Source: a virus (lineage: Duplodnaviria > Heunggongvirae > Uroviricota > Caudoviricetes). From it: a DNA stretch of 13,791 nt. Below are positions 54-12,757 of the stretch, piece by piece; position 1 is the stretch's first letter; each line of letters starts with the position of its first letter. A program made the translations under genes and the position numbers. The notes beneath the pieces are model-generated. The model ran no database searches. It saw only the letters and a list, made by a program, of their open reading frames with translations, and was not told where the DNA came from. The stretch spans positions 1 through 13,791 of the IMG/VR virus record IMGVR_UViG_2690316105_000002; one strand, 5' to 3'.

Positions 54-1643
54 CTATTGCCAGTACACCTCAGTTCGCTCCTCCGGTTCGCTGTTCTGGT
101 GCTGTTTATCTTCAGTCTGTCGCACTTTATTTTCCGTTTTTTTGACTTCATTTGAGGAGATATGATGACCGGGAATCCATTTCGAATCATTCGGGTCGCT
201 AATCCCTTCAACAAATTCTCCGCGAGAGGCAGCCAGTAATTTGTCTGCATCGACAGGATTTTTGGGCGGAATGTTTTTCCGGGCTTCATGGAGTTCTGTC
301 CGCAGTTTCTGATATTTCGCATCAACAGCATTTACCTGTGACTGAGCATCCAGCGGCTGCGTGTCCTGATGATGTTCAGTTGCATCCGGTTCCACTGTTT
401 CAGCCGTTGCCTGTTCATCTGCCATTGCGCAAGATGGTTGCGGTTTTTCTTCATCATCCTGTTTTCCTTCTTCTGTTACACGCTGCGGCATCGGGGCAGA
501 GGAGCGACCGCAGGCAATATCCACGATTTCCGGATCAGGGTTGGCATGATCGGTTTCAGTCAGTACCTTGTTCAGATATTCAGTGACGTGCGCGGGGATG
601 ACCTCGATCCCAATTGGTGCTTCTTTTACGGACGCAACCACGATGGCGCGGGAATAATCCAGCCCGCCAGGCATGGTGATGAATTTGTCGCGGAAAACAG
701 AAAAGGGCGGTTTATTTTCAGCGATAATTTCCTCAATGCGTTTAGCGTGTGCCGGATGAAGGTTATAGATGTCCAGATCCATTGAACGGGCCAGTACGCC
801 AGTGGCTACGTCGCGCGCCAGTGACGTCAGATCGTGTACGAAACCTTCGCCGCGATCGGTGAGGTTTCCGCCGCCAGCATTAGCACCGGAAGCCGTGCGA
901 GTGATGTGTGAAACACGATTACCCTTCATCCACTCTTTTGTCAGCAGTCCTCGATCGGTGTAGTCAGCGTTCAGGTATGCTTCGAAAAAAGCAGTTATCA
1001 GTCCCAGGCTTGAATTACCAGGATTAGGGAAAACTTTGTCAGTGTCACGAACCAGTTTGTGGAGATCGCGAATTTCCAGCGGGTCGAGCAGGCTGGTTTT
1101 GTGGGAAACAGCCAGGGCAGTAACAGCCGGTAGTTCTTCAGCCCGAGCAATGTGTAATGCCTGGAGTCCGTCGCGTGAAACGTGCGTTACCGGTTTTTCG
1201 CTGCCGTGTTGAGCAAGCCAGCGAATGGGCAGTTCCTGACCGGAAACTGGCAGGAGCATGTTCTCCTCAATTTCTGTCATGTCTTCGCCGTTGACGTTGG
1301 TATTGTCAGTGCTGGCTGGTTTGTCCTGAACAGAGGGAGAAGATGCGATAAATACCATTGTGATGCCATCTTCCCCGCCTTTTTCGTAACGGTTGCAGAA
1401 TTCCGTATCAAACACGCCTTCTGGTGGGAGGTCATCAACAACGGGCAAATTGACGCGAACAGGTTTTTTAAAGTCATCTTCATCGTAGCCAGCATCGTCA
1501 ATCGCAACAGCACCACGGGAGATGGCAATGGATAATTTTTTCGCTTCAGCCCAGTAAAAACCGCCTTTAATACCGAGGCGTTTTCTTACTTTGTCATTTT
1601 TTGCTTCGTAATACAGTGGGTAAACTTGTTTATCGGTGCTCAT
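54..1643 (-). CDS. hypothetical phage early-left-operon protein, 529 aa, with acidic low-complexity C-terminal tail; family not assignable by eye
   Basis: Longest ORF in the window; last of four tightly spaced minus-strand genes (23-nt gap to the upstream ORF); protein-like composition. No recognisable catalytic motif found. Confidence 0.6.
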
Positions 1644-1666
1644 TGTTTTTTAACCTCAACTCATAT

Positions 1667-1963
1667 TCAGATTGCATAAAAGAAACGAACTGATGATGCG
1701 ATATGAGAGAGTTCTTTCAGTCGTTGATAACTGATACCGTATTTCTTGTCAGCCTCTTCAATGCGAGCTGTGAGTAATGCAATTCCTTTAATGGCACATA
1801 CACAACAATCAAATGTTCCCAGAACGTAACCGTCATCAATAATTACCGTGACGTTTTCTTTTTGGGAAATCTGAATGAAACTATGTAATGTATTCCCACA
1901 TTTAAATTCGGCGAGAGAATCGTTAATAACATCAAGTTCAATTTCACATTCAATAATGCTCAT
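1667..1963 (-). CDS. hypothetical small protein, 98 aa, AT-rich gene
   Basis: ORF track 1667..2011; the internal ATG at 1963 is preceded by an AAGGAA Shine-Dalgarno on the minus strand, whereas the 2011 start has none. AT-rich relative to flanks. Confidence 0.5.
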   Translation of the reverse strand: MSIIECEIELDVINDSLAEFKCGNTLHSFIQISQKENVTVIIDDGYVLGTFDCCVCAIKGIALLTARIEEADKKYGISYQRLKELSHIASSVRFFYAI

Positions 1964-2037
1964 TGCTGTTTCCTTTTTTAAGGTTGAGTGAATCCCTGCC
2001 ATTGCTGGCATAAATTCAGATTCGAATATTCAGTTAA

Positions 2038-2319
2038 TTAAAGTTCGTGTGCCATCTTGTCTTTTTCGGCACAAGCTGCACTGCAATATTTTCGTTTCTT
2101 TCTGGCAATCATGTTTCCATGCATATAAATAAGCTCGCCAGTAAAAGCTTTTTCAGGTAAAAACTGTTTATTGCAGAGATGGTAATCACATTGTATTAAA
2201 TCCGGGTCACCTTTTTGCTGGAGAATTTTTCTGATTCTCCACAGCCATTTTTTAATCCCGGTATGACTGATGGTCTGCCTGAGGGCAGGTGTAAAACAAT
2301 AATCAAGCATGGGGTTCAT
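2038..2319 (-). CDS. hypothetical small Cys/His-containing protein, about 93 aa (alternative start 2325)
   Basis: ORF track 2038..2325; GGAG lies 8 nt upstream of the ATG at 2319 but only 2 nt from the ATG at 2325. Paired Cys spacings (C-x4-C and C-x3-C) suggest a possible zinc ribbon. AT-rich. Confidence 0.5.
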   Translation of the reverse strand: MNPMLDYCFTPALRQTISHTGIKKWLWRIRKILQQKGDPDLIQCDYHLCNKQFLPEKAFTGELIYMHGNMIARKKRKYCSAACAEKDKMAHEL

Positions 2320-2335
2320 ATCCATAGCTCCATTT

Positions 2336-2890
2336 TTATTTTAAGGAAAGCAACTGCTCTACGGTCATGTTTTTAATTGCGCCCCGGTTAACAAGAGTCC
2401 ATCCCTGTTTTTCCAGATAAAACCGGAAAGTCTCCAGGGTACAGACCAGTGCGCCATCAGGAACGGTTTCGGTGAATTCGACATTGCCGAATTTGTCGAA
2501 GTGAACAACCAGAGTGCGACCATCACCCGGAATCATCTTGTCAGCAGGTGGGGTGTTATTCTGGCGCAGTTCGGCCTCCATGCGGTCGAACTCAGCAATG
2601 TAGGCTTCCTTGAATGCGGCGGCTTTTTTGCCAGTGAAGCCCATCACCAGGAAAACGAAGCCGTTTTTGGTGATTTGGTACATGGGGAGTTTGCGTCCGG
2701 TTGAGTCGGTATATTCGCTCGACACAAAATTGTGCCCAGTGAATTTTGCTGAACAGTCCAGATTGCGAATTTTATCCAGCACTCGTTCATGGCGCTTGCC
2801 AAAGAACTCTGCGATTGCAACAGACGTAGTGACAGCGCGACCATTTTCGATGGTTACGTCAGGGTGAGAAAGGGCAGGGATAGTAGCCAT
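2336..2890 (-). CDS. rha: Rha-family phage regulatory protein
   Basis: N-terminal segment VTTSVAIAEFFGKRHERVLDKIRNL matches the conserved Rha-domain core as recalled; AAGGAGG Shine-Dalgarno 8 nt upstream of the ATG at 2890. Confidence 0.75.
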   Translation of the reverse strand: MATIPALSHPDVTIENGRAVTTSVAIAEFFGKRHERVLDKIRNLDCSAKFTGHNFVSSEYTDSTGRKLPMYQITKNGFVFLVMGFTGKKAAAFKEAYIAEFDRMEAELRQNNTPPADKMIPGDGRTLVVHFDKFGNVEFTETVPDGALVCTLETFRFYLEKQGWTLVNRGAIKNMTVEQLLSLK

Positions 2891-3155
2891 TTTAGTGGCC
2901 TCCTTAACTGTTTTAGTCTGCGATTACCAGTTAGTAGCTGGTGATCGGGTGTCAACTAGAGCCAGTTAAGAAGCTCCGGGCATATTCCCCTTACGGGTAT
3001 TGTATTACGCCTCTCCACCCGATCTTTGTACGGATGTGCCGTATTTCAGGCATAAAAAAGCCGCAAGGCTATCGGGTGCGGATGACCGCTTAACTGTTTC
3101 TAGTGCGATCATCTTGCAACAATGCAGGTTGCTTTGTCAATATCCCGGATATCAG

Positions 3156-3190
3156 AAAGCAAAAACCCCTGAACTGGTGGGGACAGGGGC
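3156..3190 (-). terminator. rho-independent terminator downstream of the toxin gene
   Basis: Minus-strand hairpin CAGGGG / CCCCTG (plus 3166..3171 and 3184..3189) followed by a T-tract (plus-strand A5 at 3161..3165), just 3' of the ORF ending at 3210. Confidence 0.6.
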
Positions 3191-3209
3191 GCTACTAAAT
3201 GTGTAATTG

Positions 3210-3530
3210 CTAAACTCTGATCAATCGTCTGAACAGTAACTGTTTAATATCCTGACGTTGGGAAAGAATCACGTGTGCAGTGATAATATCCTCCTCGACA
3301 GAGTACAGCACTCTGTAGCCTTCTGGTGTGTTGCACTCTCTGTATTTAGCCACGCCAAGCTTGAGCAACTCCGGGCATAACTGACATCCGGACGGGAATG
3401 CAGTAACTCTTGTTTCAAATCGCTCAAGAATTTCTGCTATTACAGGGCGTGGGTCAATGTCGTTACTCCGGAGATGGTCGGCAATTTGCTCAAGGCTTGT
3501 TCTGGCGGTAAGTGTGTATTCAACCTGCAT
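3210..3530 (-). CDS. parE: type II toxin, RelE/ParE superfamily (ParE-like), 106 aa
   Basis: Size and C-terminal pattern (GYRVLYSVEEDIITAHVILSQRQD) typical of ParE/RelE-fold toxins; starts 8 nt after the stop of a Phd/YefM-like ORF. Confidence 0.7.
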   Translation of the reverse strand: MQVEYTLTARTSLEQIADHLRSNDIDPRPVIAEILERFETRVTAFPSGCQLCPELLKLGVAKYRECNTPEGYRVLYSVEEDIITAHVILSQRQDIKQLLFRRLIRV

Positions 3531-3538
3531 AGTTAACC

Positions 3539-3772
3539 TTAGTTGTTAAAGCTATCCAGCAACTGTGCTTTTGAAAACACGCGACCTTCAGACTTGTCGT
3601 TTTCTGAAATAGTGAGAAGTTTCAGTAACGCAATAGCGTTCTCGCGTTCCTGTTGCTGCTCATAGGATTCAATTACGTATGCAGGAACACCATTCTGCGT
3701 GACAAGAATGGGTTCCGCCAGGTCCAGTGAGGCTGCGTTTTTCTTGATGTAGCTGATAGTTTCTATTTTCAT
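3539..3772 (-). CDS. phd: type II antitoxin, Phd/YefM family, 77 aa
   Basis: Small ORF directly upstream of the toxin; N-terminal region (ILVTQNGVPAYVIESYEQQQEREN) resembles Phd/YefM antitoxins; AAGGAA Shine-Dalgarno upstream of the ATG. Confidence 0.65.
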   Translation of the reverse strand: MKIETISYIKKNAASLDLAEPILVTQNGVPAYVIESYEQQQERENAIALLKLLTISENDKSEGRVFSKAQLLDSFNN

Positions 3773-3832
3773 ATGGGTGTTCCTTTTTTCATTGGGAGTT
3801 ATAATTTAGTCTGAATTTAGTTTTCTCGCAAG
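3773..3832 (-). promoter_or_regulatory. candidate promoter/operator of the phd-parE operon
   Basis: Minus strand reads TTGCGA-N17-TAAATT upstream of the phd ribosome-binding site, with tandem ACTAAATT direct repeats that could be the autoregulatory operator. Confidence 0.3.
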
Positions 3833-4173
3833 TGGCGGAAGCCGCCAGTTTGGTTTGTTCAAAAAGTCACATCCCGACCCTGCGTTCCGGTTCTGCGGAT
3901 ATATCAGGGCATTCGGCGGCACCCCGAATTGTGGTTTACGTGACAGCCCGGTTCATATTGTTAAAGAGCGGCGGATTTCAGGTGTGGAAATCCCCTGCAC
4001 GAATAACGGTTAATTCGCGCATAATTAATTAAATAAATTTTGTTGATGCGGTGCCTGGTGCCTCCAGGTGACGTTAACCAGTTAACAATTAACGCCGGAA
4101 TAAGGGATTTTCCTTACTGTTTTAACTGTTCCGCGTGCGCTCAGCCGCATTCACCGCATCACAAAATTCACTT

Positions 4174-4235
4174 TAAAAAGGGCGGCAGAGCAAAACTGAT
4201 GCCGCCAAAAGTTTCATCGCCAACAACTCAATCTG
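4174..4235 (-). ncRNA. dicF: candidate DicF-like small RNA (3' end defined by an intrinsic terminator)
   Basis: Minus strand ends ...UUUUGGCGGCAUCAGUUUUGCUCUGCCGCCCUUUUU: a GGCGGCA/TGCCGCC stem plus U-tract resembling the DicF 3' end as recalled. Sits downstream of the ydfABC-like ORFs, as DicF does in Qin. A 10-bp inverted repeat (4248..4257 with 4277..4286) lies just 5'. Confidence 0.4.
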
Positions 4236-4536
4236 GAGATGTTGTGGCGGGTTGTCACTTAATCGTATGGTCAACCTGACAACCCGGTGGACATTTGCGA
4301 GGAACGGAGAAACCCCGCCATACTTACCGCCGCGCCATTTCGCGGATTGCCACAACCGGAAGCGCACGGTCGGCGAAAATTTAACGACAGGCTATCTATG
4401 ACCAGCTACCTCGCCGTGCGCTTTCGTGTTGTGTGCCTGCTTTTAACCACGTCAGGCGAGGTGGTTCCTGTTATTCCCCAACAACAAGAAATTTGTATAA
4501 TCTGAATACCCCAACAATAAGAAGAGTGAGCAAGTG

Positions 4537-5004
4537 ATGTTTGATCTATCATTAGCGATGTCAGCTCTCAAAGAGACTGCATCAATGTTAAAATTATTCA
4601 ATGAAGCAAAAACTCAGGCTGAGGTTGATCGCGCTGTGTCTGAAATAAACTCTAAGTTGTCAAGCATTCAGCTTGAATATTTGTCTCTCATTGATGAGCT
4701 GACAATCTCTAAAAGCAATGAGGCTGCGCTCAAAGCAAAACTCACGGAGATAGAAAAGTTTAAGTTCCAAAGTGAAGACTGCGAACCTCGCCAATTGATT
4801 ACTGGAACGATTGTGTATGCCAGACAGTGCAATACTAGCTCTGGCAAGATTACCATGTATTTTTGTCCAGAATGTTTTGCGAAGAGAGCAATATCTATAT
4901 TGCAACCTTTCCCTATCGAGGAAGGCGATAAATATACGAAAACTCAATGTCCCTCCTGTAAAAATGAGTATCTCATGGACTACAATTTCAATAATGATTT
5001 TTGA
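4537..5004 (+). CDS. hypothetical coiled-coil protein with C-terminal four-Cys zinc-ribbon motif (CPEC...CPSC), 155 aa
   Basis: Clean ORF with GAG-containing ribosome-binding site and its own -10 (TATAAT at 4496..4501); strongly AT-rich versus flanks; opposite orientation to the surrounding left operon. Confidence 0.6.
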   Translation: MFDLSLAMSALKETASMLKLFNEAKTQAEVDRAVSEINSKLSSIQLEYLSLIDELTISKSNEAALKAKLTEIEKFKFQSEDCEPRQLITGTIVYARQCNTSSGKITMYFCPECFAKRAISILQPFPIEEGDKYTKTQCPSCKNEYLMDYNFNNDF

Positions 5005-5122
5005 GTCAAGGTATTCAGATTTTTAAAGAACATGCCGGATACTCACCCGTGTCCGGCGCACGCACTCCACCTCACCCGTGGAGAACTCCTTAATTACCAA
5101 CCTTGGCTTCGTTGGTTAGCCA

Positions 5123-5341
5123 TTAACGCTGGTATGTAATCATTCTGGCAATGCTTAATGCCGCTGCTTTTTCCAGCCTGGTGATATCCTGCTCCTGAGC
5201 GGACAGATTTTCGGCCTCCTTAGCCCGGGCTTCATTGGCCCACTTCAGGTCCTGCGCAGCCTGAATTTTCTGGTGCATCCACTCATAAAGTTCATCATCG
5301 GTATAGTCTGGCGCGATGATGACGGGGTCACGTTTCTGCAT
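5123..5341 (-). CDS. ydfC: small early-left-operon protein, 72 aa (YdfC-like by size and order)
   Basis: ORF track; GAGGA ribosome-binding site; third in a 51/42/72-aa series matching Qin ydfA-ydfB-ydfC lengths as recalled. Confidence 0.5.
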   Translation of the reverse strand: MQKRDPVIIAPDYTDDELYEWMHQKIQAAQDLKWANEARAKEAENLSAQEQDITRLEKAAALSIARMITYQR

Positions 5342-5370
5342 ACCGATTCCTCGCGGTGCTGTTTCGCTTA

Positions 5371-5499
5371 TCAGCCGTTAGATTTTGCCGAACTGGAAAG
5401 CGCCTGTTTAAACTCACTGAAGCTGAGAGCTTCTTCGCCTTCGGCAAGGCCTTCGAAGTATTCTTCGTAAGCCTTTTTCATGATTGTGTCGAAATCCAT
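5371..5499 (-). CDS. ydfB: small early protein, 42 aa (YdfB-like by size and order)
   Basis: Hand-translated (below the track cutoff): MDFDTIMKKAYEEYFEGLAEGEEALSFSEFKQALSSSAKSNG. GGTGAG Shine-Dalgarno; its ATG is 1 nt from the upstream gene's TAA (TAATATG). Confidence 0.45.
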   Translation of the reverse strand: MDFDTIMKKAYEEYFEGLAEGEEALSFSEFKQALSSSAKSNG

Positions 5500-5500
5500 A

Positions 5501-5656
5501 TTACTCACCTGAGTTTCTTTCCAGCCAGCGACGCGCGCCAGATTCGGTTTTAAACGTTTTGCTTTTGGTATACGTCATCGCGGTGAACGTGCCGTCCTGG
5601 TTGGGAAACACGCCACACACCAGGGATTCGTTGTTGCCAAGATCGATAGTATCCAT
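5501..5656 (-). CDS. ydfA: small early protein, 51 aa (YdfA-like by size and order)
   Basis: Hand-translated: MDTIDLGNNESLVCGVFPNQDGTFTAMTYTKSKTFKTESGARRWLERNSGE. Ribosome-binding site GGAAATGAGG; first gene after the PL-like promoter. Confidence 0.45.
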   Translation of the reverse strand: MDTIDLGNNESLVCGVFPNQDGTFTAMTYTKSKTFKTESGARRWLERNSGE

Positions 5657-5729
5657 GCTGACCTCATTTCCCCTTAACGCCGGGTGGCGGAACTAAAACC
5701 TGTCGCACCGTTGTGCTTTGATGGAATAC

Positions 5730-5758
5730 ATTGTTCTCTTTAAATGAACATATGTCAA
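5730..5758 (-). promoter_or_regulatory. early-left (PL-like) promoter with embedded 17-bp operator
   Basis: Minus strand TTGACA (5753..5758), 17-nt spacer, AACAAT (5730..5735). Operator GTTCTCTTTAAATGAAC (5733..5749) is a near copy of the operator at the PR-like promoter. Confidence 0.55.
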
Positions 5759-5778
5759 CATTATGAATTCATAAAAGG

Positions 5779-5810
5779 CAAAAAAAACCGCCTTTCGGCG
5801 GTATTGTTTT
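5779..5810 (-). terminator. rho-independent terminator after the repressor gene
   Basis: CCGCC-TTTC-GGCGG hairpin (5788..5801) flanked by an A-tract on one side and a T-tract on the other; minus strand reads hairpin then TTTTTTTT. Confidence 0.7.
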
Positions 5811-5823
5811 GTAAAATAAAGAA

Positions 5824-6213
5824 TTATTTTTGACGCGTTGCTGGGTCAACGTATTCTGAATAAAATTCAGTCAGTTTTTGAAGTCGCATTTGAAAAGCTG
5901 CAAGCATATTTCTGCGTTCTACAGGTGGCAGATTTCTGTAAACATCAAGCAGGGCTTTCTCATCATCATCAAGTGTCTCTCTATTGCTATCTTCTTTTCC
6001 TGTCAGCAACCAGGAAAGGGATACGTTTGTAGCTTCTGCAATTTTTGCCGCGGAATCTTTACTGATTGTTCCTCTTTTTTTCCATGCGTTAACTGACGAG
6101 CGACCTACACCAGCGATACGCGCTAAATCTGAACCGCTTAAGTGATGCTGTTGCGAGATCGTATCTAACCTTTCTGCCAGCGGGGTGTCGTATTGCTTTT
6201 TTCTCATGTCCAT
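5824..6213 (-). CDS. prophage repressor, HTH (XRE-type), DicA/CI-like, 129 aa, no peptidase domain
   Basis: Helix-turn-helix segment (SGSDLARIAGVGRSSVNAWKKRG); divergent from a Cro-like gene; followed by a terminator and the left-operon promoter. Too short for a LexA-like autocleavage domain. Confidence 0.8.
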   Translation of the reverse strand: MDMRKKQYDTPLAERLDTISQQHHLSGSDLARIAGVGRSSVNAWKKRGTISKDSAAKIAEATNVSLSWLLTGKEDSNRETLDDDEKALLDVYRNLPPVERRNMLAAFQMRLQKLTEFYSEYVDPATRQK

Positions 6214-6295
6214 TTGGCAATTATAACCGTTCAGTGAACACTAACAATTTCTCAGGGTGTTGACTTACGTTCTTTTTAAGTGAACAATTGTTGTG
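6214..6295. promoter_or_regulatory. divergent PRM-like / PR-like promoters with operators
   Basis: PR-like (plus): TTGACT 6260..6265, 17 nt, AACAAT 6283..6288, with operator GTTCTTTTTAAGTGAAC at 6269..6285. PRM-like (minus): TTGTTA, 16 nt, TATAAT (plus 6220..6225) ending 7 nt before the repressor ATG. Extra palindrome GTTCAGTGAAC at 6229..6239. Confidence 0.6.
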
Positions 6296-6317
6296 TTTGA
6301 TTGAAGTGGAGGATTGT

Positions 6318-6593
6318 ATGACTGCTTTGGATAAAGCAATAAAGATTGCTGGTGGTATTCGCCCGTTAGGGCGCGCAATAGGGGCCTGGCCGTCCCAAAT
6401 ACACAAATGGGTAAATGAATACCATGGTCGAGTGCCGACAGGAGAACGAGTTCGCCAAATTTACCTTGCAACTGGGGTTACTCCTCATGAGTTGCGGCCA
6501 GATTTGTACCCCAACCCAACCGACGGTTTACCTGTTGGATGTAAGGCTAGCACACAAAATTCACGGGGGATGATTCATGAAAATCAGGCATGA
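6318..6593 (+). CDS. Cro-like HTH regulator (YdaS-like), 91 aa
   Basis: GGAGGA Shine-Dalgarno 4 nt before the ATG at 6318 (the track's TTG start at 6288 is less likely); first gene of the right operon. Confidence 0.7.
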   Translation: MTALDKAIKIAGGIRPLGRAIGAWPSQIHKWVNEYHGRVPTGERVRQIYLATGVTPHELRPDLYPNPTDGLPVGCKASTQNSRGMIHENQA

Positions 6594-6999
6594 GCACATC
6601 GAATCAGTGTTGTTAGCCCTGGCAGCCGAAAAAGGGCAGGCGTGGGTTGCCAACGCACTGACTGAAGAATATCTGCGCCAGGGGGGAGGTGAATTGTCTC
6701 TGACACCAGGCAAGGACTGGAATAATCAGCAGAACATCTATCATCGTTGGTTAAAAGGTGAAACGAAAGCGCAAAGGGAAAAAATTCAGAAACTGATCCC
6801 TGCGGTTCTGGCAATTCTTCCGCGTGAGCTGCGTCACCGACTCTGTATCTTCGATACCCTGGAACGCCGTGCATTACTGGCGGCGCAGGAAGCGTTGAGT
6901 ACGGCAATTGATGCGCATGATGACGCAGTTCAGGCCGTTTACCGGAAAGCACATTTCAGCGGTGGTGGGTCGTCCGACGATTCTGTCGTTGTGCATTGA
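6577..6999 (+). CDS. CII-like / YdaT-like protein, 140 aa
   Basis: Overlaps the Cro-like gene by 17 nt; GGGGGA ribosome-binding site; size and position match YdaT-family proteins as recalled. Confidence 0.6.
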   Translation: MKIRHEHIESVLLALAAEKGQAWVANALTEEYLRQGGGELSLTPGKDWNNQQNIYHRWLKGETKAQREKIQKLIPAVLAILPRELRHRLCIFDTLERRALLAAQEALSTAIDAHDDAVQAVYRKAHFSGGGSSDDSVVVH

Positions 7000-7089
7000 T
7001 GTTTATGCCGAACCTCCTCTGGTTCTGTTGATTGGGGAATCACAGATTATATCCGGAGGAAGGTTCGGCACCAGACGAGGTTTCTATAT

Positions 7090-7845
7090 ATGAGCATGAA
7101 ACTAATGGCAAAAGCAATGGAAATTAAAGTGGGTAATCCATTGCGTAAGCTGGTTCTGATTAAGCTGGCTGATAATGCCAGCGATCAGGGCGAGTGCTGG
7201 CCCAGCTACCAGTATATCGCTGACCAGTGCGAGATTAGCAAGCGTTCTGTGATTAATCATATTGCGGCGCTTTGTGAGTCCGGGCTGGTAAAAAAAATCA
7301 CCCGGAAAGGTGAAAAAGGTAATACAAGTAATATCTATCTCCTTCATCTGGATGGTGCAGAAAATTTACCGGGGAATAGTGCAAATAATTCGCTACATTG
7401 TGCATCAGATGCATCGGGTAGCGCAGGAGTTGCACCTGTTGCCAGTGCAGGAGTTGCACCCAGAACCAGTCACTCTTTTGAACCAGTCAATGAACCTGAT
7501 GTTGGTGGATCTGCTGACGCAGATCCACAGGTCAGTCATCGCGCAAAAAACAAAATCGACTGGCAGAGGGTTCTGGACAGCTATCACGAAATCCTGCCTG
7601 AAATGCCATCAGTGAAAATTCTGACGGATACTAGGAAAAAAAATCTGCGGACGTTCTGGCAGAAATTCGGTTTTGACCAGCAGCGATGGGAGTCCTATCT
7701 GCGATACGTTGCTGAGAACTGTCGCTGGATGCTGGAAGATCGTCCCAATGGCAGCGGTGGGTTCTGGAAGCGTAAAAACCTGGATTACCTGATCACCGAA
7801 CGGTGCTATGTCGCTGTCAAAGAGGCGCGGGCAAATGACAGATAA
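7090..7845 (+). CDS. phage replication initiation protein (N-terminal winged-helix DNA-binding domain), 251 aa
   Basis: N-terminal motif GECWPSYQYIADQCEISKRSVINHIAALCESGLV typical of phage replication-initiator HTH domains; Gly/Ser/Ala/Pro-rich linker containing direct DNA repeats; immediately followed by the helicase gene. Confidence 0.7.
   Translation: MSMKLMAKAMEIKVGNPLRKLVLIKLADNASDQGECWPSYQYIADQCEISKRSVINHIAALCESGLVKKITRKGEKGNTSNIYLLHLDGAENLPGNSANNSLHCASDASGSAGVAPVASAGVAPRTSHSFEPVNEPDVGGSADADPQVSHRAKNKIDWQRVLDSYHEILPEMPSVKILTDTRKKNLRTFWQKFGFDQQRWESYLRYVAENCRWMLEDRPNGSGGFWKRKNLDYLITERCYVAVKEARANDR
7423..7489. repeat. iteron-like direct repeats inside the initiator gene (candidate origin)
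   Basis: GCAGGAGTTGCACC at 7423..7436 and 7447..7460; GAACCAGTCA at 7463..7472 and 7480..7489; A-rich tract downstream around 7543..7556. Confidence 0.45.
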
Positions 7846-9238
7846 CACCTTTCCGGTGCCATACCGGGTCGATGCCGAACAGGCAGTGCTGGGGTGCCTG
7901 ATGGTAAACACCGACACTGAGCGTGCGGGGCAGGTGTATTCGATGCTGAAACCGGAGTCGTTTTACGTTGCGGCGCACAGGGTTATTTTCCGTGAAATTC
8001 GCGGACTTTTCCGCGCCGGAAAGCCTACGGACCTGCTCAGCCTTGCGAACGTGATCGAGGCGAAAAAACTGGATGCTGAGACTGGTGGCTTTGCGTACCT
8101 TGCTGAAATCAGCAGGAGTGCCACGCTATCGGCGATGGTTCACTACGCCGGGATTGTGCGGGAAAAATCCATCCTGCGGTACGCGGTGGAAAAATTACAT
8201 GCGTGCATCGGGATCATGAATCAGCCGACAGACACGAGTGCGACAGAACGACTTGGCGCAGTTCAACAGGTCATTGGCACGATGGCAGAGTATGCCAGAA
8301 CAGGAAAAACAGGCGGTCTGCGCCCGGTAAGTGATGTGGTTAACGACTGGATTGATGATCTTGAGCGTCGCTTTTCCAGCCCGGAGAACGCAGCGGGTCT
8401 GACGCTGGGGATTAGCTCTCTGGATCGGCTTATGGCCCCCAAACATGTGCTACGTGGTTCGCTGGTAGTGATTGGTGCAAGGCCGAAAATGGGTAAAAGC
8501 GCCTCGCTGAACAGGATTGTGACGCATTTTGCTCTGAATCATCGTCTGCCCACACTGGTATTCACCCTGGAAATGACAGATCGCAGCCTGGTTGAGCGCA
8601 TGGTTGCGCAGGAGGCGAGGGTAAATTCTGAAATTTTTTATGTCGGTGCCAGTGATGACTCGGATATGGCGCGGGCGATGGCGAAAGCCGCAGAACTGGC
8701 AGAATCAAACCTGATGATTGACAGCACACCAGGGGTAACGCTGGCCCATGTGATCGCTGAATGCCGGAAGGTTAAGCGTCAGCGTGGTGTTGTCGGCCTT
8801 GTGGCGATCGATTACCTGACGCTGATGAAGGCGGAAGCCGCGGAGCGTCGTGATATTGCTTTCGGGGATATCACAACGGGCTTAAAAAATCTCGCTAAAG
8901 AGCTGGACTGCGTGGTTTTACTTCTGACGCAACTTAACCGAAAACTCGAGGACAGGGCAGATAAACGCCCCACACCAAGCGACAGTCGCGACACCGGGCA
9001 GATTGAACAGGATTGCGATGTGTGGATTGGGTTGTACCGGGATGCTGTCTACAACCGTAACGCAGACTCTCAGCTTATGGAGCTGATTCTCCGTCTGAAC
9101 AGGGAGGGAGCAACAGGAACAGCATACGCCCTGATGGATAACGGTTCAGTGACTGATGTCAGCGCAGAGGATGCTGCCAGACGTCTGAGACTTGGTGGTC
9201 CGGCACGTAAACCCTACGCACAGACGGAGGATTTCTGA
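7835..9238 (+). CDS. dnaB: replicative DNA helicase, DnaB family
   Basis: DnaB-like N-terminal domain and Walker A-like motif GARPKMGKS; the ATG at 7835 overlaps the initiator stop (ATGACAGATAA); the track's upstream start at 7808 is less likely. Confidence 0.85.
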   Translation: MTDNTFPVPYRVDAEQAVLGCLMVNTDTERAGQVYSMLKPESFYVAAHRVIFREIRGLFRAGKPTDLLSLANVIEAKKLDAETGGFAYLAEISRSATLSAMVHYAGIVREKSILRYAVEKLHACIGIMNQPTDTSATERLGAVQQVIGTMAEYARTGKTGGLRPVSDVVNDWIDDLERRFSSPENAAGLTLGISSLDRLMAPKHVLRGSLVVIGARPKMGKSASLNRIVTHFALNHRLPTLVFTLEMTDRSLVERMVAQEARVNSEIFYVGASDDSDMARAMAKAAELAESNLMIDSTPGVTLAHVIAECRKVKRQRGVVGLVAIDYLTLMKAEAAERRDIAFGDITTGLKNLAKELDCVVLLLTQLNRKLEDRADKRPTPSDSRDTGQIEQDCDVWIGLYRDAVYNRNADSQLMELILRLNREGATGTAYALMDNGSVTDVSAEDAARRLRLGGPARKPYAQTEDF

Positions 9239-9399
9239 TGCAGTCACTTTGTGATGTTCTGGAAAAAACGCTGCTTCAGTTCGGGCGGGGGGAAACGGCG
9301 GAGCAGAAAACACGAAACCAGAAGAATCTGGTTCATCTGAGAAAAATGATTGATGCAGCCAGGCTGGCTGAAAAGCTGGAAAAACAAAACCGGAGGTAA
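9238..9399 (+). CDS. hypothetical small protein, 53 aa
   Basis: Hand-translated ([23 protein letters not shown]...); its ATG shares one base with the helicase TGA (TGATG); the next gene's GGAGG lies in its 3' end. Confidence 0.4.
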
Positions 9400-9404
9400 T
9401 TTTA

Positions 9405-10166
9405 ATGGAAACTGTTTTTGACGCACTGAAAGCAATGGGAAAAGCCACATCCACAGAACTTGCTGCGCGACTTGATATCAGTCGTGAAGAAGTGCTGAAC
9501 GAACTATGGGAACTGAAAAAGGCTGGTTTTGTTGATAAAAGCGCGTACACCTGGCGTGTGGCTGATAACAACGTTCAGCAGGAACAGCCAGCGCAGGCAG
9601 AACTGCCGGAAGAAACCACCACAGCAACAGTAGCGAAAATCTCAGAGTGCGATTTAACCGCGACGATTGAACAACGCGGACCACAAACGGCTGATGAGCT
9701 GGCTACATTGTTTGGTACCACATCACGCAAAGTGGCTTCAACGCTGGCAATGGCAATCAGCAAAGGTCGTCTGATTCGCGTAAATCAGGGCGGTAAATTT
9801 CGTTACTGCATACCGGGCGATAATTTACCAGCAGAGCCGAAAGCAGCATCGGTAGCGGAAACTGATGGTAAGGCCTTTCCTCAGCCCGCAGGTGTTGCAT
9901 TACCAGTACAGGAGGCTGCAACACAGGAAGATATTAAAACAGAAACGGTGGCGGACATTGTGCAGTCGCTGCCATTGTTCACCGAAACGCGAGCGGATGA
10001 CCTGGTTTTACCATCGCTGCATATGGCAAACCGCGAACTGCGTCGGGCGAAAAGTCATGTCCAGAAGTGGGAGCGTGTCTGCGCCGCGCTGCGGGAGCTG
10101 AATAAACACCGGGACGTTGTCCGGCAGATTGTCGACTCTTCCCGCCGTGTTGCATCGGAAAAGTGA
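9405..10166 (+). CDS. hypothetical phage protein with two winged-helix-like segments, 253 aa
   Basis: ORF track; GGAGG 8 nt upstream; two HTH-like stretches (residues about 10-50 and 90-130). Confidence 0.6.
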
Positions 10167-10181
10167 TTGCCGGAGGCGCTT

Positions 10182-10607
10182 ATGGCAAAAGTATTTACAC
10201 AGGAAGAGCGGGAAAAATTAAAGGGGCGGGTTGTTGAACTTGTACGTCTTAGCGGTCGCGAGACGTTACGGCAACTGGAAGCGAAAACAGGTGCGACAAG
10301 ATATCTGTTGAGCGTTCTCGCCAGAGAGCTGGTTGCCAGTGGTGATGTATACAACTCTGACTACGGGTTATTTCCCTCTGAACAGGCTCGTAAGGACTGG
10401 CAAAACGCCCGCAAAAAACTATCAAGGGCAAAACTGAAGAAAAAAACATCTGTGGTTGATCCGGACCTTATCTGGTCGTTACCAGACGGCGAAATACGTC
10501 GCTACGACAGTCGCCTAAACATAATCTGTCGCGAGTGCCGGAAGAGCGAAGTTATGCAGCGCATATTGTCGTTTTATCAGGGTAATTTTCAGGAGGTGAT
10601 GGCGTGA
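10182..10607 (+). CDS. hypothetical phage protein, about 141 aa
   Basis: ORF track 10167..10607; the ATG at 10182 is preceded by GGAGG and is preferred over the TTG at 10167. Confidence 0.55.
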   Translation: MAKVFTQEEREKLKGRVVELVRLSGRETLRQLEAKTGATRYLLSVLARELVASGDVYNSDYGLFPSEQARKDWQNARKKLSRAKLKKKTSVVDPDLIWSLPDGEIRRYDSRLNIICRECRKSEVMQRILSFYQGNFQEVMA

Positions 10608-12425: not shown

Positions 12426-12601
12426 TGCAGCGGGTGCTTGAGGCTATCTGTCTCAGGCATGAACACCAAAAGGCAGATAGAGAAAAGCCCCAGTTAACAT
12501 TACGCGTCCGGCAAGACGCTTAACATTAAGCTGAGGCTCAATCCATGCTGAACACATGTAGGTTAGCCTCTTACGTGCCGAAAGGCAAGGAGAAGCAGGC
12601 T

Positions 12602-12757
12602 ATGAAGCAGCAAAAGGCGATGTTAATCGCCCTGATCGTCATCTGTTTAACCGTCATAGCGACGGCACTGGTAACGAGGAAAGACCTCTGTGAGGTACGA
12701 ATCCGAACCGGCCAGACGGAGGTCGCTGTCTTCGTAGACTACGAATCTAGAGAGTAA
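12602..12757 (+). CDS. hok: Hok/Gef-family type I toxin, 51 aa
   Basis: MKQQKAMLIALIVICLTVIATALVTRKDLCEVRIRTGQTEVAVFVDYESRE: membrane helix followed by the conserved LVTRKDLCEV-RIRTGQTEVAVF core of Hok/Gef toxins as recalled; long structured leader and 3' UTR; in-frame upstream ATG at 12545. Confidence 0.85.
   Translation: MKQQKAMLIALIVICLTVIATALVTRKDLCEVRIRTGQTEVAVFVDYESRE

Follow-up and report, generated by a model that had tools for sequence, protein, structure and literature searches.

A rare dicF-slot allele and a BoxA-linked structured RNA in the probable untranslated middle of a dicBF-type prophage operon

In this work we examine a 761-bp stretch without an evident gene (positions 3773-4533, here called the gap) in the IMG/VR virus record IMGVR_UViG_2690316105_000002, the whole 13,791 nucleotides of which constitute the window. 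The element is a Rac/Qin-type lambdoid prophage, and the main interest of the gap lies in two features of its minus strand, namely a polymorphic small RNA (sRNA) slot within a fixed scaffold, at the position occupied by dicF in Escherichia coli K-12, and a BoxA-linked RNA for which we found neither an Rfam family nor, in the literature that we searched, a description. The gene order on the minus strand runs from a CI/DicA-like repressor gene (5824-6213) through ydfA, ydfB and ydfC (5123-5656), then past a gene on the opposite strand (4537-5004, plus; a match to phrog_1244, of unknown function) into the gap, and continues with a Phd/YefM antitoxin gene (3539-3772) and a RelE/ParE toxin gene (3210-3530), both matched in Pfam, beyond which lie rha, ydaE and recE. 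This order agrees with that in VL40, RMDEC465 and K-12, and tblastn matched the K-12 proteins YdfA, YdfB and YdfC at 96%, 98% and 90% identity, respectively. K-12 DicB, YdfD and a Rac-type Kil had no tblastn match anywhere in the window, which bears out the statement of an earlier note, made from the sequence alone, that dicB is missing. E. coli VL40 has a prophage that matches the gap itself at 100% identity and the window as a whole at ~98% over 73-10293; the alignment is interrupted between 10293 and 11342, where IS2 is annotated in VL40. Because overall identity is only ~98% and the alignment breaks at IS2, the two represent different, closely related strains despite the identity at 3773-4533. 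The VL40 copy adjoins yebY and shows a frameshifted integrase gene and truncated recE and rha.

The earlier note had described the gap as a structured non-coding region with a DicF-like sRNA, and all of the hairpins and repeats that it listed are found in place. On the minus strand these comprise a terminator stem, GGCGGCA/TGCCGCC (4181-4187/4200-4206), perfect over 7 bp and followed by a C and then UUUUU (4175-4179), a perfect 10-bp inverted repeat (4248-4257/4277-4286) and a GGATTTC/GAAATCC stem (3973-3979/3988-3994); the remaining elements are a tandem GGTGCCT direct repeat (4050-4063) and a CGTTAAC...GTTAAC...TTAACG cluster (4072-4094). The structure of the gap exceeds chance, with the minus-strand RNA 4445..4020 folding at -158.1 kcal/mol as against -126.8 +/- 4.9 in 100 shuffles (z = -6.3) and the plus strand of the same stretch giving z = -4.4. 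The view of a non-coding, structured region in which the minus strand is the relevant one is supported; the lack of a conserved open reading frame (ORF) is discussed below.

Comparison with the Qin dicB operon, also suggested in the earlier note, relates these hairpins to a known framework. In an alignment of the window minus strand with K-12 Qin (from the ydfC stop to the dicB stop), phage Tritos, RM11911 and A34, the window was collinear with the K-12 ydfC-dicF-dicB leader, two nearly invariant blocks, conserved almost base for base, flanking a variable slot that coincides exactly with the K-12 dicF position. The upstream block is the ydfC-dicF spacer (4248-4440, minus), the body of the 190-nt DicF precursor, and it contains a long irregular helix, seen both as an inverted repeat and in the minimum free energy (MFE) structure and carrying a putative RNase III site (~4433-4405 with 4380-4350; arms CACAACACGAAAGCGCACGG and CCGUGCGCUUCCGGUUGUGG), a CCGCG..CGCGG hairpin and a 10-bp stem-loop (4286-4248). 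The hairpins that had been listed singly are therefore real but do not form a loose collection, the 10-bp repeat being a conserved stem-loop of the 190-nt precursor. In K-12, RNase III makes the 5' end of the 190-nt DicF species and RNase E the 5' end of the 53-nt form (PMC10448788), and RNase III is also credited with the 3' end of the 72-nt species (PMC5069750). Transferred to the window, the approximate start of the 190-nt species falls at 4362, on the 3' arm of the long helix, and the 3' end of the 72-nt species at 4161, in the 5' arm of the stem that closes the downstream block. Both presumptive RNase III sites thus lie in long helices that are preserved in sequence in the window. Alignment, tblastn and site mapping thus place the slot in a dicBF-type operon, downstream of ydfA-ydfB-ydfC and inside an RNase III/E scaffold. 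The window shares with the K-12 leader this position, a nearly identical precursor scaffold and downstream spacer, the base of the terminator stem, the U-run and the helices at the mapped RNase III sites; it differs in the opposite-strand gene inserted between ydfC and the scaffold, and in carrying a BoxA RNA and a toxin-antitoxin cassette instead of dicB and ydfD. A candidate RfaH ops site at the scaffold stretch GGCGGTAAGTATG was dropped because it does not fit the ops consensus (GGCGGTAGNNTG).

As judged from alignment, Rfam and folding, the slot itself (4175-4247, minus) holds a rare sRNA allele. It folds into a stem-loop at the 5' end (GCCACAAC..GUUGUUGGC), a linker that stays single-stranded (GAUGAAACUUUU) and the terminator hairpin (GGCGGCA, a 12-nt loop, UGCCGCC) with its UUUUU tail; a terminator scan left this hairpin undetected because of the length of its loop. 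The Rho-independent GGCGG...CCGCC terminator and U-run characteristic of DicF are thus present, with the stem base GGCGGCAUCAG...UCUGCCGCC retained, and the allele keeps U-rich stretches of the kind found at the 3' end of Hfq-type sRNAs. The Rfam DicF model (RF00039) matches at 4180-4216 on the minus strand with 27.9 bits (E = 0.0012 in a 1.3-kb search), which lies below the gathering score of 48, compared with 76.7 bits for K-12 DicF and 72.5 bits for that of Tritos. Alignment with K-12 shows that the allele is without 11 nt of the DicF loop (ACUCCGUGACU), that the DicF 5' seed UUUCUGGUGAC is replaced by CCAGAUUGAGUUGUUGGCGAUGAAAC, and that the 5' part as a whole is unrelated to DicF; dicB does not follow immediately downstream. 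The DicF 3' region pairs with the ftsZ ribosome binding site and its 5' end with xylR (PMC5069750). Because the 11-nt loop is absent and the seed is replaced, both of these known pairing modules are missing. In line with this loss, the predicted duplex with the ftsZ start region (60-nt target, a crude measure) amounts to -22.6 kcal/mol for the slot allele and -31.8 kcal/mol for K-12 DicF, the former value falling within the range of other non-DicF alleles. The allele is also rare, being found by blastn in 2-3 of 5,426 complete E. coli genomes (VL40, RMDEC465 at 98.6% identity and, more distantly, A8) and in 2 of the 129 slots sampled below. Given the sub-threshold score, the absent loop and the unrelated 5' part, we regard the slot RNA as a dicF-slot variant and not as DicF. 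The earlier reading of a DicF-like sRNA without dicB was consequently half right: the terminator at 4181-4206 is homologous to the dicF 3' end and occupies the orthologous slot, whereas the allele falls short of DicF in model score, loop and seed.

Few prophage sRNAs have known host targets, and DicF is among them; a published survey counted dicF copies that were >99% identical. Sampling the slot in IMG/VR through its conserved right flank, we recovered 131 copies with 51 distinct alleles. After exclusion of the VL40 duplicate and of truncated copies, 129 slots could be classified, 89 with the canonical loop and 40 with other alleles. The latter retain a GC-rich terminator stem base of the GGCGG...CCGCC type and a U-run, those that were folded show a 5' hairpin, a linker and a terminator, and at least 6-8 non-canonical classes recur (IMG/VR loci L020-L139), for example ...GGCGGCAUCAGUUUUUUUCUUGAAGUUCGGCUGAUGUCCGCC and ...GGCGGGUAUCCGUUUUGUUUUCCCCGUGAUACCCGCC. 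Among the slot alleles, the terminator stem shows compensatory changes (GGUGG/CCACC, GGCGGAA/UUCCGCC). In A34, the sequence homologous to window 4175-4247 and lying between the same conserved flanks (L002, 4434-4511, minus) is a tRNA-like RNA, which scores 44.2 bits with the Rfam tRNA model and is annotated by PGAP as 'tRNA-OTHER', although ARAGORN makes no tRNA call on it. Cargo beyond the downstream block varies as well: K-12 and RM11911 carry dicB there, A8 carries kil and RMDEC465 rha, and the window has the cassette to which we turn below. Our literature searches found no description of non-canonical dicF-slot alleles. The dicF position is thus polymorphic, with a conserved processing scaffold that would deliver different small RNAs in different prophages, and surveys restricted to near-identical dicF copies miss approximately one third of the sampled slots.

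The downstream block (4009-4174, minus), homologous to the K-12 dicF-dicB spacer according to alignment, Rfam and MFE structure, forms a multi-hairpin domain resembling STnc100, a multicopy prophage RNA of Salmonella and enterohaemorrhagic E. coli of unknown function. The Rfam STnc100 model (RF02076) gives 38.9 bits at 4009-4178 (minus) against a gathering score of 47, and the K-12 spacer, at 34.4 bits, is likewise below it. Shared with STnc100 are a multi-hairpin domain closed by GGUGAAU...CACC and the CCNGGAGGCACCNGG hairpin; we therefore interpret the window domain as a diverged, sub-threshold relative rather than a member by the Rfam criterion. It is closed by a stem of ~22 bp (~4172-4150 with 4045-4022), the probable 3' RNase III site, and includes CGUUAA..UUAACG and CCUGG..CCAGG hairpins; the TTAAC cluster and the tandem GGTGCCT of the earlier note are two hairpins of this domain. 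Just past this closing stem, homology with dicB-type loci stops. Relative to the prophage of RMDEC465, where an intact rha comes immediately after this sRNA allele and the STnc100-like domain, the window carries a 1,148-bp insertion (2891-4038) that comprises a hairpin-BoxA-junction RNA, the Phd/RelE pair and a C4-like RNA ahead of rha.

The first of these begins with a hairpin, GGAUUUC-CACACCU-GAAAUCC (3973-3994, minus; an inverted repeat), which lies 4 nt upstream of a BoxA motif (GCUCUUUAACA, or GCTCTTTAACA as DNA; 3969-3959, minus). The order of hairpin before BoxA is familiar from rrn leaders, where boxB precedes boxA. The GGATTTC stem noticed earlier is thus genuine, and adjoins a BoxA-linked RNA that went unrecognised at the time. 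On the transcribed strand the motif matches the gamma-proteobacterial BoxA consensus GYTCTTTAANA (PMC5725501) exactly; the 11-mer is identical in the rrnH leader, and in the consensus of the family BoxA and its 3' flank share 22 of 26 bases with the BoxA region of the rrnH 16S-23S spacer. This rrn-spacer-like region explains a weak match to StyR-44, the model of which begins with the same BoxA-like sequence; apart from this weak match, no Rfam family matches the element. On the evidence of BoxA, covariation and MFE folding, BoxA leads into a three-way-junction RNA (3866-3969, minus), obtained with RNAalifold and hand-checked, with which the single-sequence MFE structure agrees. Its helices are P1 (3944-3940 with 3870-3866), a 2-bp extension (3934-3933 with 3876-3875), a P2 hairpin with the invariant loop GGUGCCG (3929-3911), P3 (3910-3906 with 3881-3877) and P4 (3898-3896 with 3889-3887). 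BoxA stands at a fixed distance in 65 of 70 unique sequences with the loop motif, the other five looking like chance matches. Among 60 distinct aligned homologues, which had been selected for a BoxA match, BoxA varies only at degenerate consensus positions, 99.1% of alignment cells are paired, and 26 cells carry double changes compared with 4.9 in shuffles, a count reached by none of 500 shuffles. Compensatory changes affect 4 of the 5 pairs of P3, and the two free positions of the search pattern are G-C or A-U only. The many G-U pairs fix the junction RNA on the minus strand.

The ~90 nt past BoxA are conserved in ~189 E. coli genomes, in IMG/VR contigs and in ~100 metagenome contigs. By blastn, plasmids yielded only four records and 50,697 GenBank phage records no match; a contig search by a pattern with 15 specified bases returned mostly chance matches, only L194 and L241 being real. 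A covariance model of the element found one copy in the window and none in K-12 Qin, Tritos or the early region of HK022. Three genomic contexts could be distinguished. In integrative and conjugative elements (ICEs) the element lies downstream of alpA, DUF2857 and traR with its end ~35 nt ahead of the gene that opens an SLT/VirB2/VirB3-4 operon, and most of these copies have a GGACG-UUAAUU-CGUCC hairpin ~12 nt upstream of BoxA. In L012 and L014 it is located ~200 nt downstream of a same-strand CI-type repressor gene (helix-turn-helix and S24 peptidase), which is the nutL/putL position, and the left operon past it runs antisense through opposite-strand genes; L010 has it at the same relative position after a 226-aa ORF without a Pfam match, where the label of repressor comes from the N-terminal sequence alone. 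In Rac-like prophages such as that of the window it precedes the Phd/RelE pair. No N-like ORF appears in the ORF listings of L012 and L014 or in the annotation of the VL40 prophage, no formal search having been made, and literature searches found no description of a BoxA element in ICE or type IV secretion system (T4SS) leaders. As a separate observation on the ICE copies (L006, L007 and most of the metagenome loci L261-L360), both the GGACG-UUAAUU-CGUCC hairpin and a GGGYCGGGTATT motif precede the element, and a conserved gene of ~77 aa without a Pfam match follows it as the first of the T4SS operon.

Similarities with known antitermination systems are divided. With the BoxA regions of rrn leaders, the 16S-23S spacer and CRISPR arrays the element shares an exact BoxA, a hairpin just upstream, and a location within long untranslated or foreign transcripts that would be targets of Rho; it differs from the rrn and CRISPR leaders in its conserved ~90-nt three-way junction, its invariant GGUGCCG loop and its carriage by prophages and ICEs. 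Likewise, L010, L012 and L014 place it where lambda nut and HK022 put are found, and like put it would act as a structured nascent RNA in phages whose ORF listings include no N-like ORF (no formal search was made). It departs from lambda nut, in which N binds BoxA and boxB, by having a three-way junction downstream in place of a 15-nt boxB, and from put by containing BoxA, by arranging three helices around a junction instead of two stem-loops, and by its single copy in the window, put having a copy downstream of each early promoter. The covariance model reached at most 9.4 bits, a noise level, in HK022 22.0-34.5 kb with filters off, the put sequences themselves being unaligned. In the window, the left-operon transcript would remain untranslated between the ydfC stop (5123) and the start of phd (3772), over ~1.35 kb, which makes sensitivity to Rho plausible, and BoxA alone is known to protect long untranslated RNAs such as rRNA and CRISPR arrays from Rho (PMC7665894). 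Based on this analysis, we regard the BoxA element as a candidate Nus-dependent antitermination leader.

Taken together, we consider it probable that the gap is the untranslated middle of a dicBF-type early-left operon on the minus strand, with a rare allele in the dicF slot and a BoxA cassette in place of dicB. Transcription would start at a promoter beside the DicA/CI-like repressor gene, pass through ydfA, ydfB and ydfC, continue antisense through the opposite-strand gene and, by homology, enter the DicF-precursor scaffold, which would be cut as in K-12, RNase III acting in the long helix and RNase E beside the sRNA. An RNA of ~55-75 nt ending at 4175-4180 may then be released in the manner of DicF. 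This RNA would not be expected to repress ftsZ; it could act on other targets through the linker GAUGAAACUUUU, or may serve just as a terminator. Polymerases that read through would transcribe the STnc100-like domain, whose 22-bp closing stem would supply the second of the K-12 RNase III sites, and NusB/NusE could bind BoxA on the nascent RNA, such that the Nus complex together with the junction RNA may render the polymerase resistant to Rho, and possibly to terminators, allowing expression of the downstream operon genes. With the division-inhibiting part of DicF lost and dicB gone, the prophage would retain the regulatory RNA framework without either toxic function.

A broader proposal, which we advance tentatively and with rather less than even confidence, is that the hairpin-BoxA-junction RNA (3866-3994, minus) represents an undescribed class of antitermination leader of mobile elements and that the dicF slot is a site for swappable sRNA cassettes. 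Under this proposal the BoxA of the rRNA spacer may have been copied to recruit host NusB/E-SuhB, with the junction RNA either working in the manner of put or providing a platform for some factor. If so, the element would license long Rho-sensitive operons, among them ICE type IV secretion, the early-left operons of phages without N and the cargo that replaces dicB, while the slot would sit in a fixed RNase III/E scaffold that in approximately one third of the sampled prophages carries non-DicF sRNAs, one of them tRNA-like. The recurrence of the BoxA-linked RNA at the heads of conjugation and early phage operons makes it a candidate for an N-free use of the host rRNA antitermination machinery.

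Several alternatives concern what the gap and its slot encode. That a small protein gene is hidden there, such as the 64-aa ORF 4173-4367 on the minus strand or an ORF on the plus strand, might be argued from the seven ORFs of 48-79 aa present, from a match of phrog_8854, the sole PHROG match in the gap, to 21 residues of ORF 4173-4367, and from hypothetical proteins annotated over homologous DNA in some phage records. We find this scarcely credible, as none of the seven ORFs has a Pfam match, K-12 RefSeq has no coding sequence at this place, conservation is at the nucleotide level with indels that are not multiples of three, and ORF 4173-4367 varies in frame and length across 93 homologous copies, being 31 or 36 aa long in 76 of them with the frame shifting after ~20 codons. 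For this last reason the phrog_8854 match reflects nucleotide conservation and not a gene; the earlier statement that no convincing ORF exists thus stands, and examination of ORFs, Pfam and PHROG matches found no intact coding gene in the region. A functional DicF that pairs with ftsZ mRNA and so inhibits division, in a prophage from which only dicB was lost, has the orthologous position and conserved flanks in its favour, along with the partial model match and an identical stem base (GGCGG.AUCAG...UCUGCCGCC). It is nonetheless very improbable, since the score remains under 48 where K-12 and Tritos reach 72-77, the deleted 11 nt belong to the 3' region used in pairing to the ftsZ ribosome binding site (PMC5069750), another sequence stands in place of the 5' seed, and the predicted ftsZ duplex is ~9 kcal/mol weaker than that of K-12 DicF. 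More weight, though still on the unlikely side, attaches to the view of the slot as a decayed dicF remnant without a role in trans, of which only the terminator and flanking structures matter, as an attenuator and processing site in a degrading prophage. The 11-nt deletion, the occurrence in so few genomes and the pseudogenes in the VL40 copy of the prophage point in this direction, while the 5' part is not degraded DicF but a different sequence related to the slot alleles of L108 and A8, its layout of 5' hairpin, single-stranded U-rich linker and terminator is that of an sRNA and of the other folded non-canonical alleles, the terminator and both processing helices are intact, and a second strain, whose downstream cargo differs, has conserved the allele at 98.6% identity.

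For the BoxA element the principal competitor is a repressive or translational leader of the suhB type, in which Nus factors bound to BoxA prevent the following gene from being translated and favour termination by Rho, keeping T4SS, toxin-antitoxin or early phage genes low. Repression by a BoxA in the 5' untranslated region (UTR) is established for suhB (PMC5725501), and the ICE copies end ~35 nt before the first start codon of their operon. Against this, BoxA lies ~190 nt upstream of the next start codon in the window and >700 nt upstream of the next same-strand gene in L012 and L014, the similarity to the rrn spacer antiterminator extends past BoxA, and a positive role is favoured by the occurrence of the element at the nutL position of phages in which no N gene is visible; we therefore hold repression to be improbable. 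The antitermination reading has to contend with the suhB precedent itself and with several further points. In the window BoxA does not head the operon, whose promoter lies ~1.7 kb away, on the far side of an intrinsic terminator; it sits at the end and not the beginning of the ~1.35-kb untranslated stretch, and no promoter was detected near it in a sigma-70 consensus scan of 3600-4700. Covariation is confined to P3 and to single pairs in P1 and in P2, with no variation in P4 or the 2-bp helix, and a single junction RNA sequence folds no more stably than its shuffles (z = -0.41), for which reason the evidence for structure comes from conservation and covariation. The proposal of a released sRNA is weakened in turn by the fact that processing and release are known from K-12 only and extended to the window by homology, by an RNAduplex comparison of full-length sRNAs with a 120-nt ftsZ leader that did not separate DicF from shuffles, and by the great rarity of the allele and its residence, in VL40, in a decaying prophage, which may make it a non-functional remnant.

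The margins of the gap contain further candidate control elements. On the plus strand, 4441-4536 could provide the promoter and 5' leader of the 4537-5004 gene, as suggested by sequence, repeats and the PHROG match; this segment aligns with RM11911, which has the same opposite-strand gene, and not with K-12. The 4537-5004 gene itself, for which Pfam gave no match, occupies the position that sieB has in Rac-like prophages. A putative extended -10 (TGTATAAT, 4494-4501) is flanked there by 18-nt direct repeats at 4473-4490 and 4506-4523 (ATTCCCCAACAACAAGAA, ATACCCCAACAATAAGAA), which could be operator or translational control sites. At the other margin, 3773-3865 (minus) is the putative promoter, operator and 5' UTR of the Phd/YefM-RelE/ParE pair, with direct repeats of ACUAAAUU at 3803-3810 and 3814-3821 (plus strand) and a GGCGG-CUUC-CCGCC hairpin at 3830-3850 (minus); hand-picked promoter hexamers for the pair agree with the consensus at only 8 of 12 positions. 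The sigma-70 scan mentioned above, which required at least 9 of 12 positions, gave no promoter and no full -35/-10 pair, and the promoters proposed here are therefore ones that we infer. ARAGORN called no tRNA or tmRNA in the window, and an Rfam scan of the window at gathering thresholds returned only sRNA-Xcc1 and sok, both outside the gap. The former, of the C4 antisense RNA clan, scores 67.4 bits at 2935-3024 (minus), just upstream of a Rha-like ORF (2336-2890); A34 has C4 and isrK matches at the equivalent place, and we take this RNA to resemble the antirepressor control modules of P1 immI and Gifsy-1 isrK-anrP. The latter is a full-length sok antitoxin RNA of the hok/sok type I toxin-antitoxin system, matched with 118.7 bits at 12432-12607 on the plus strand.

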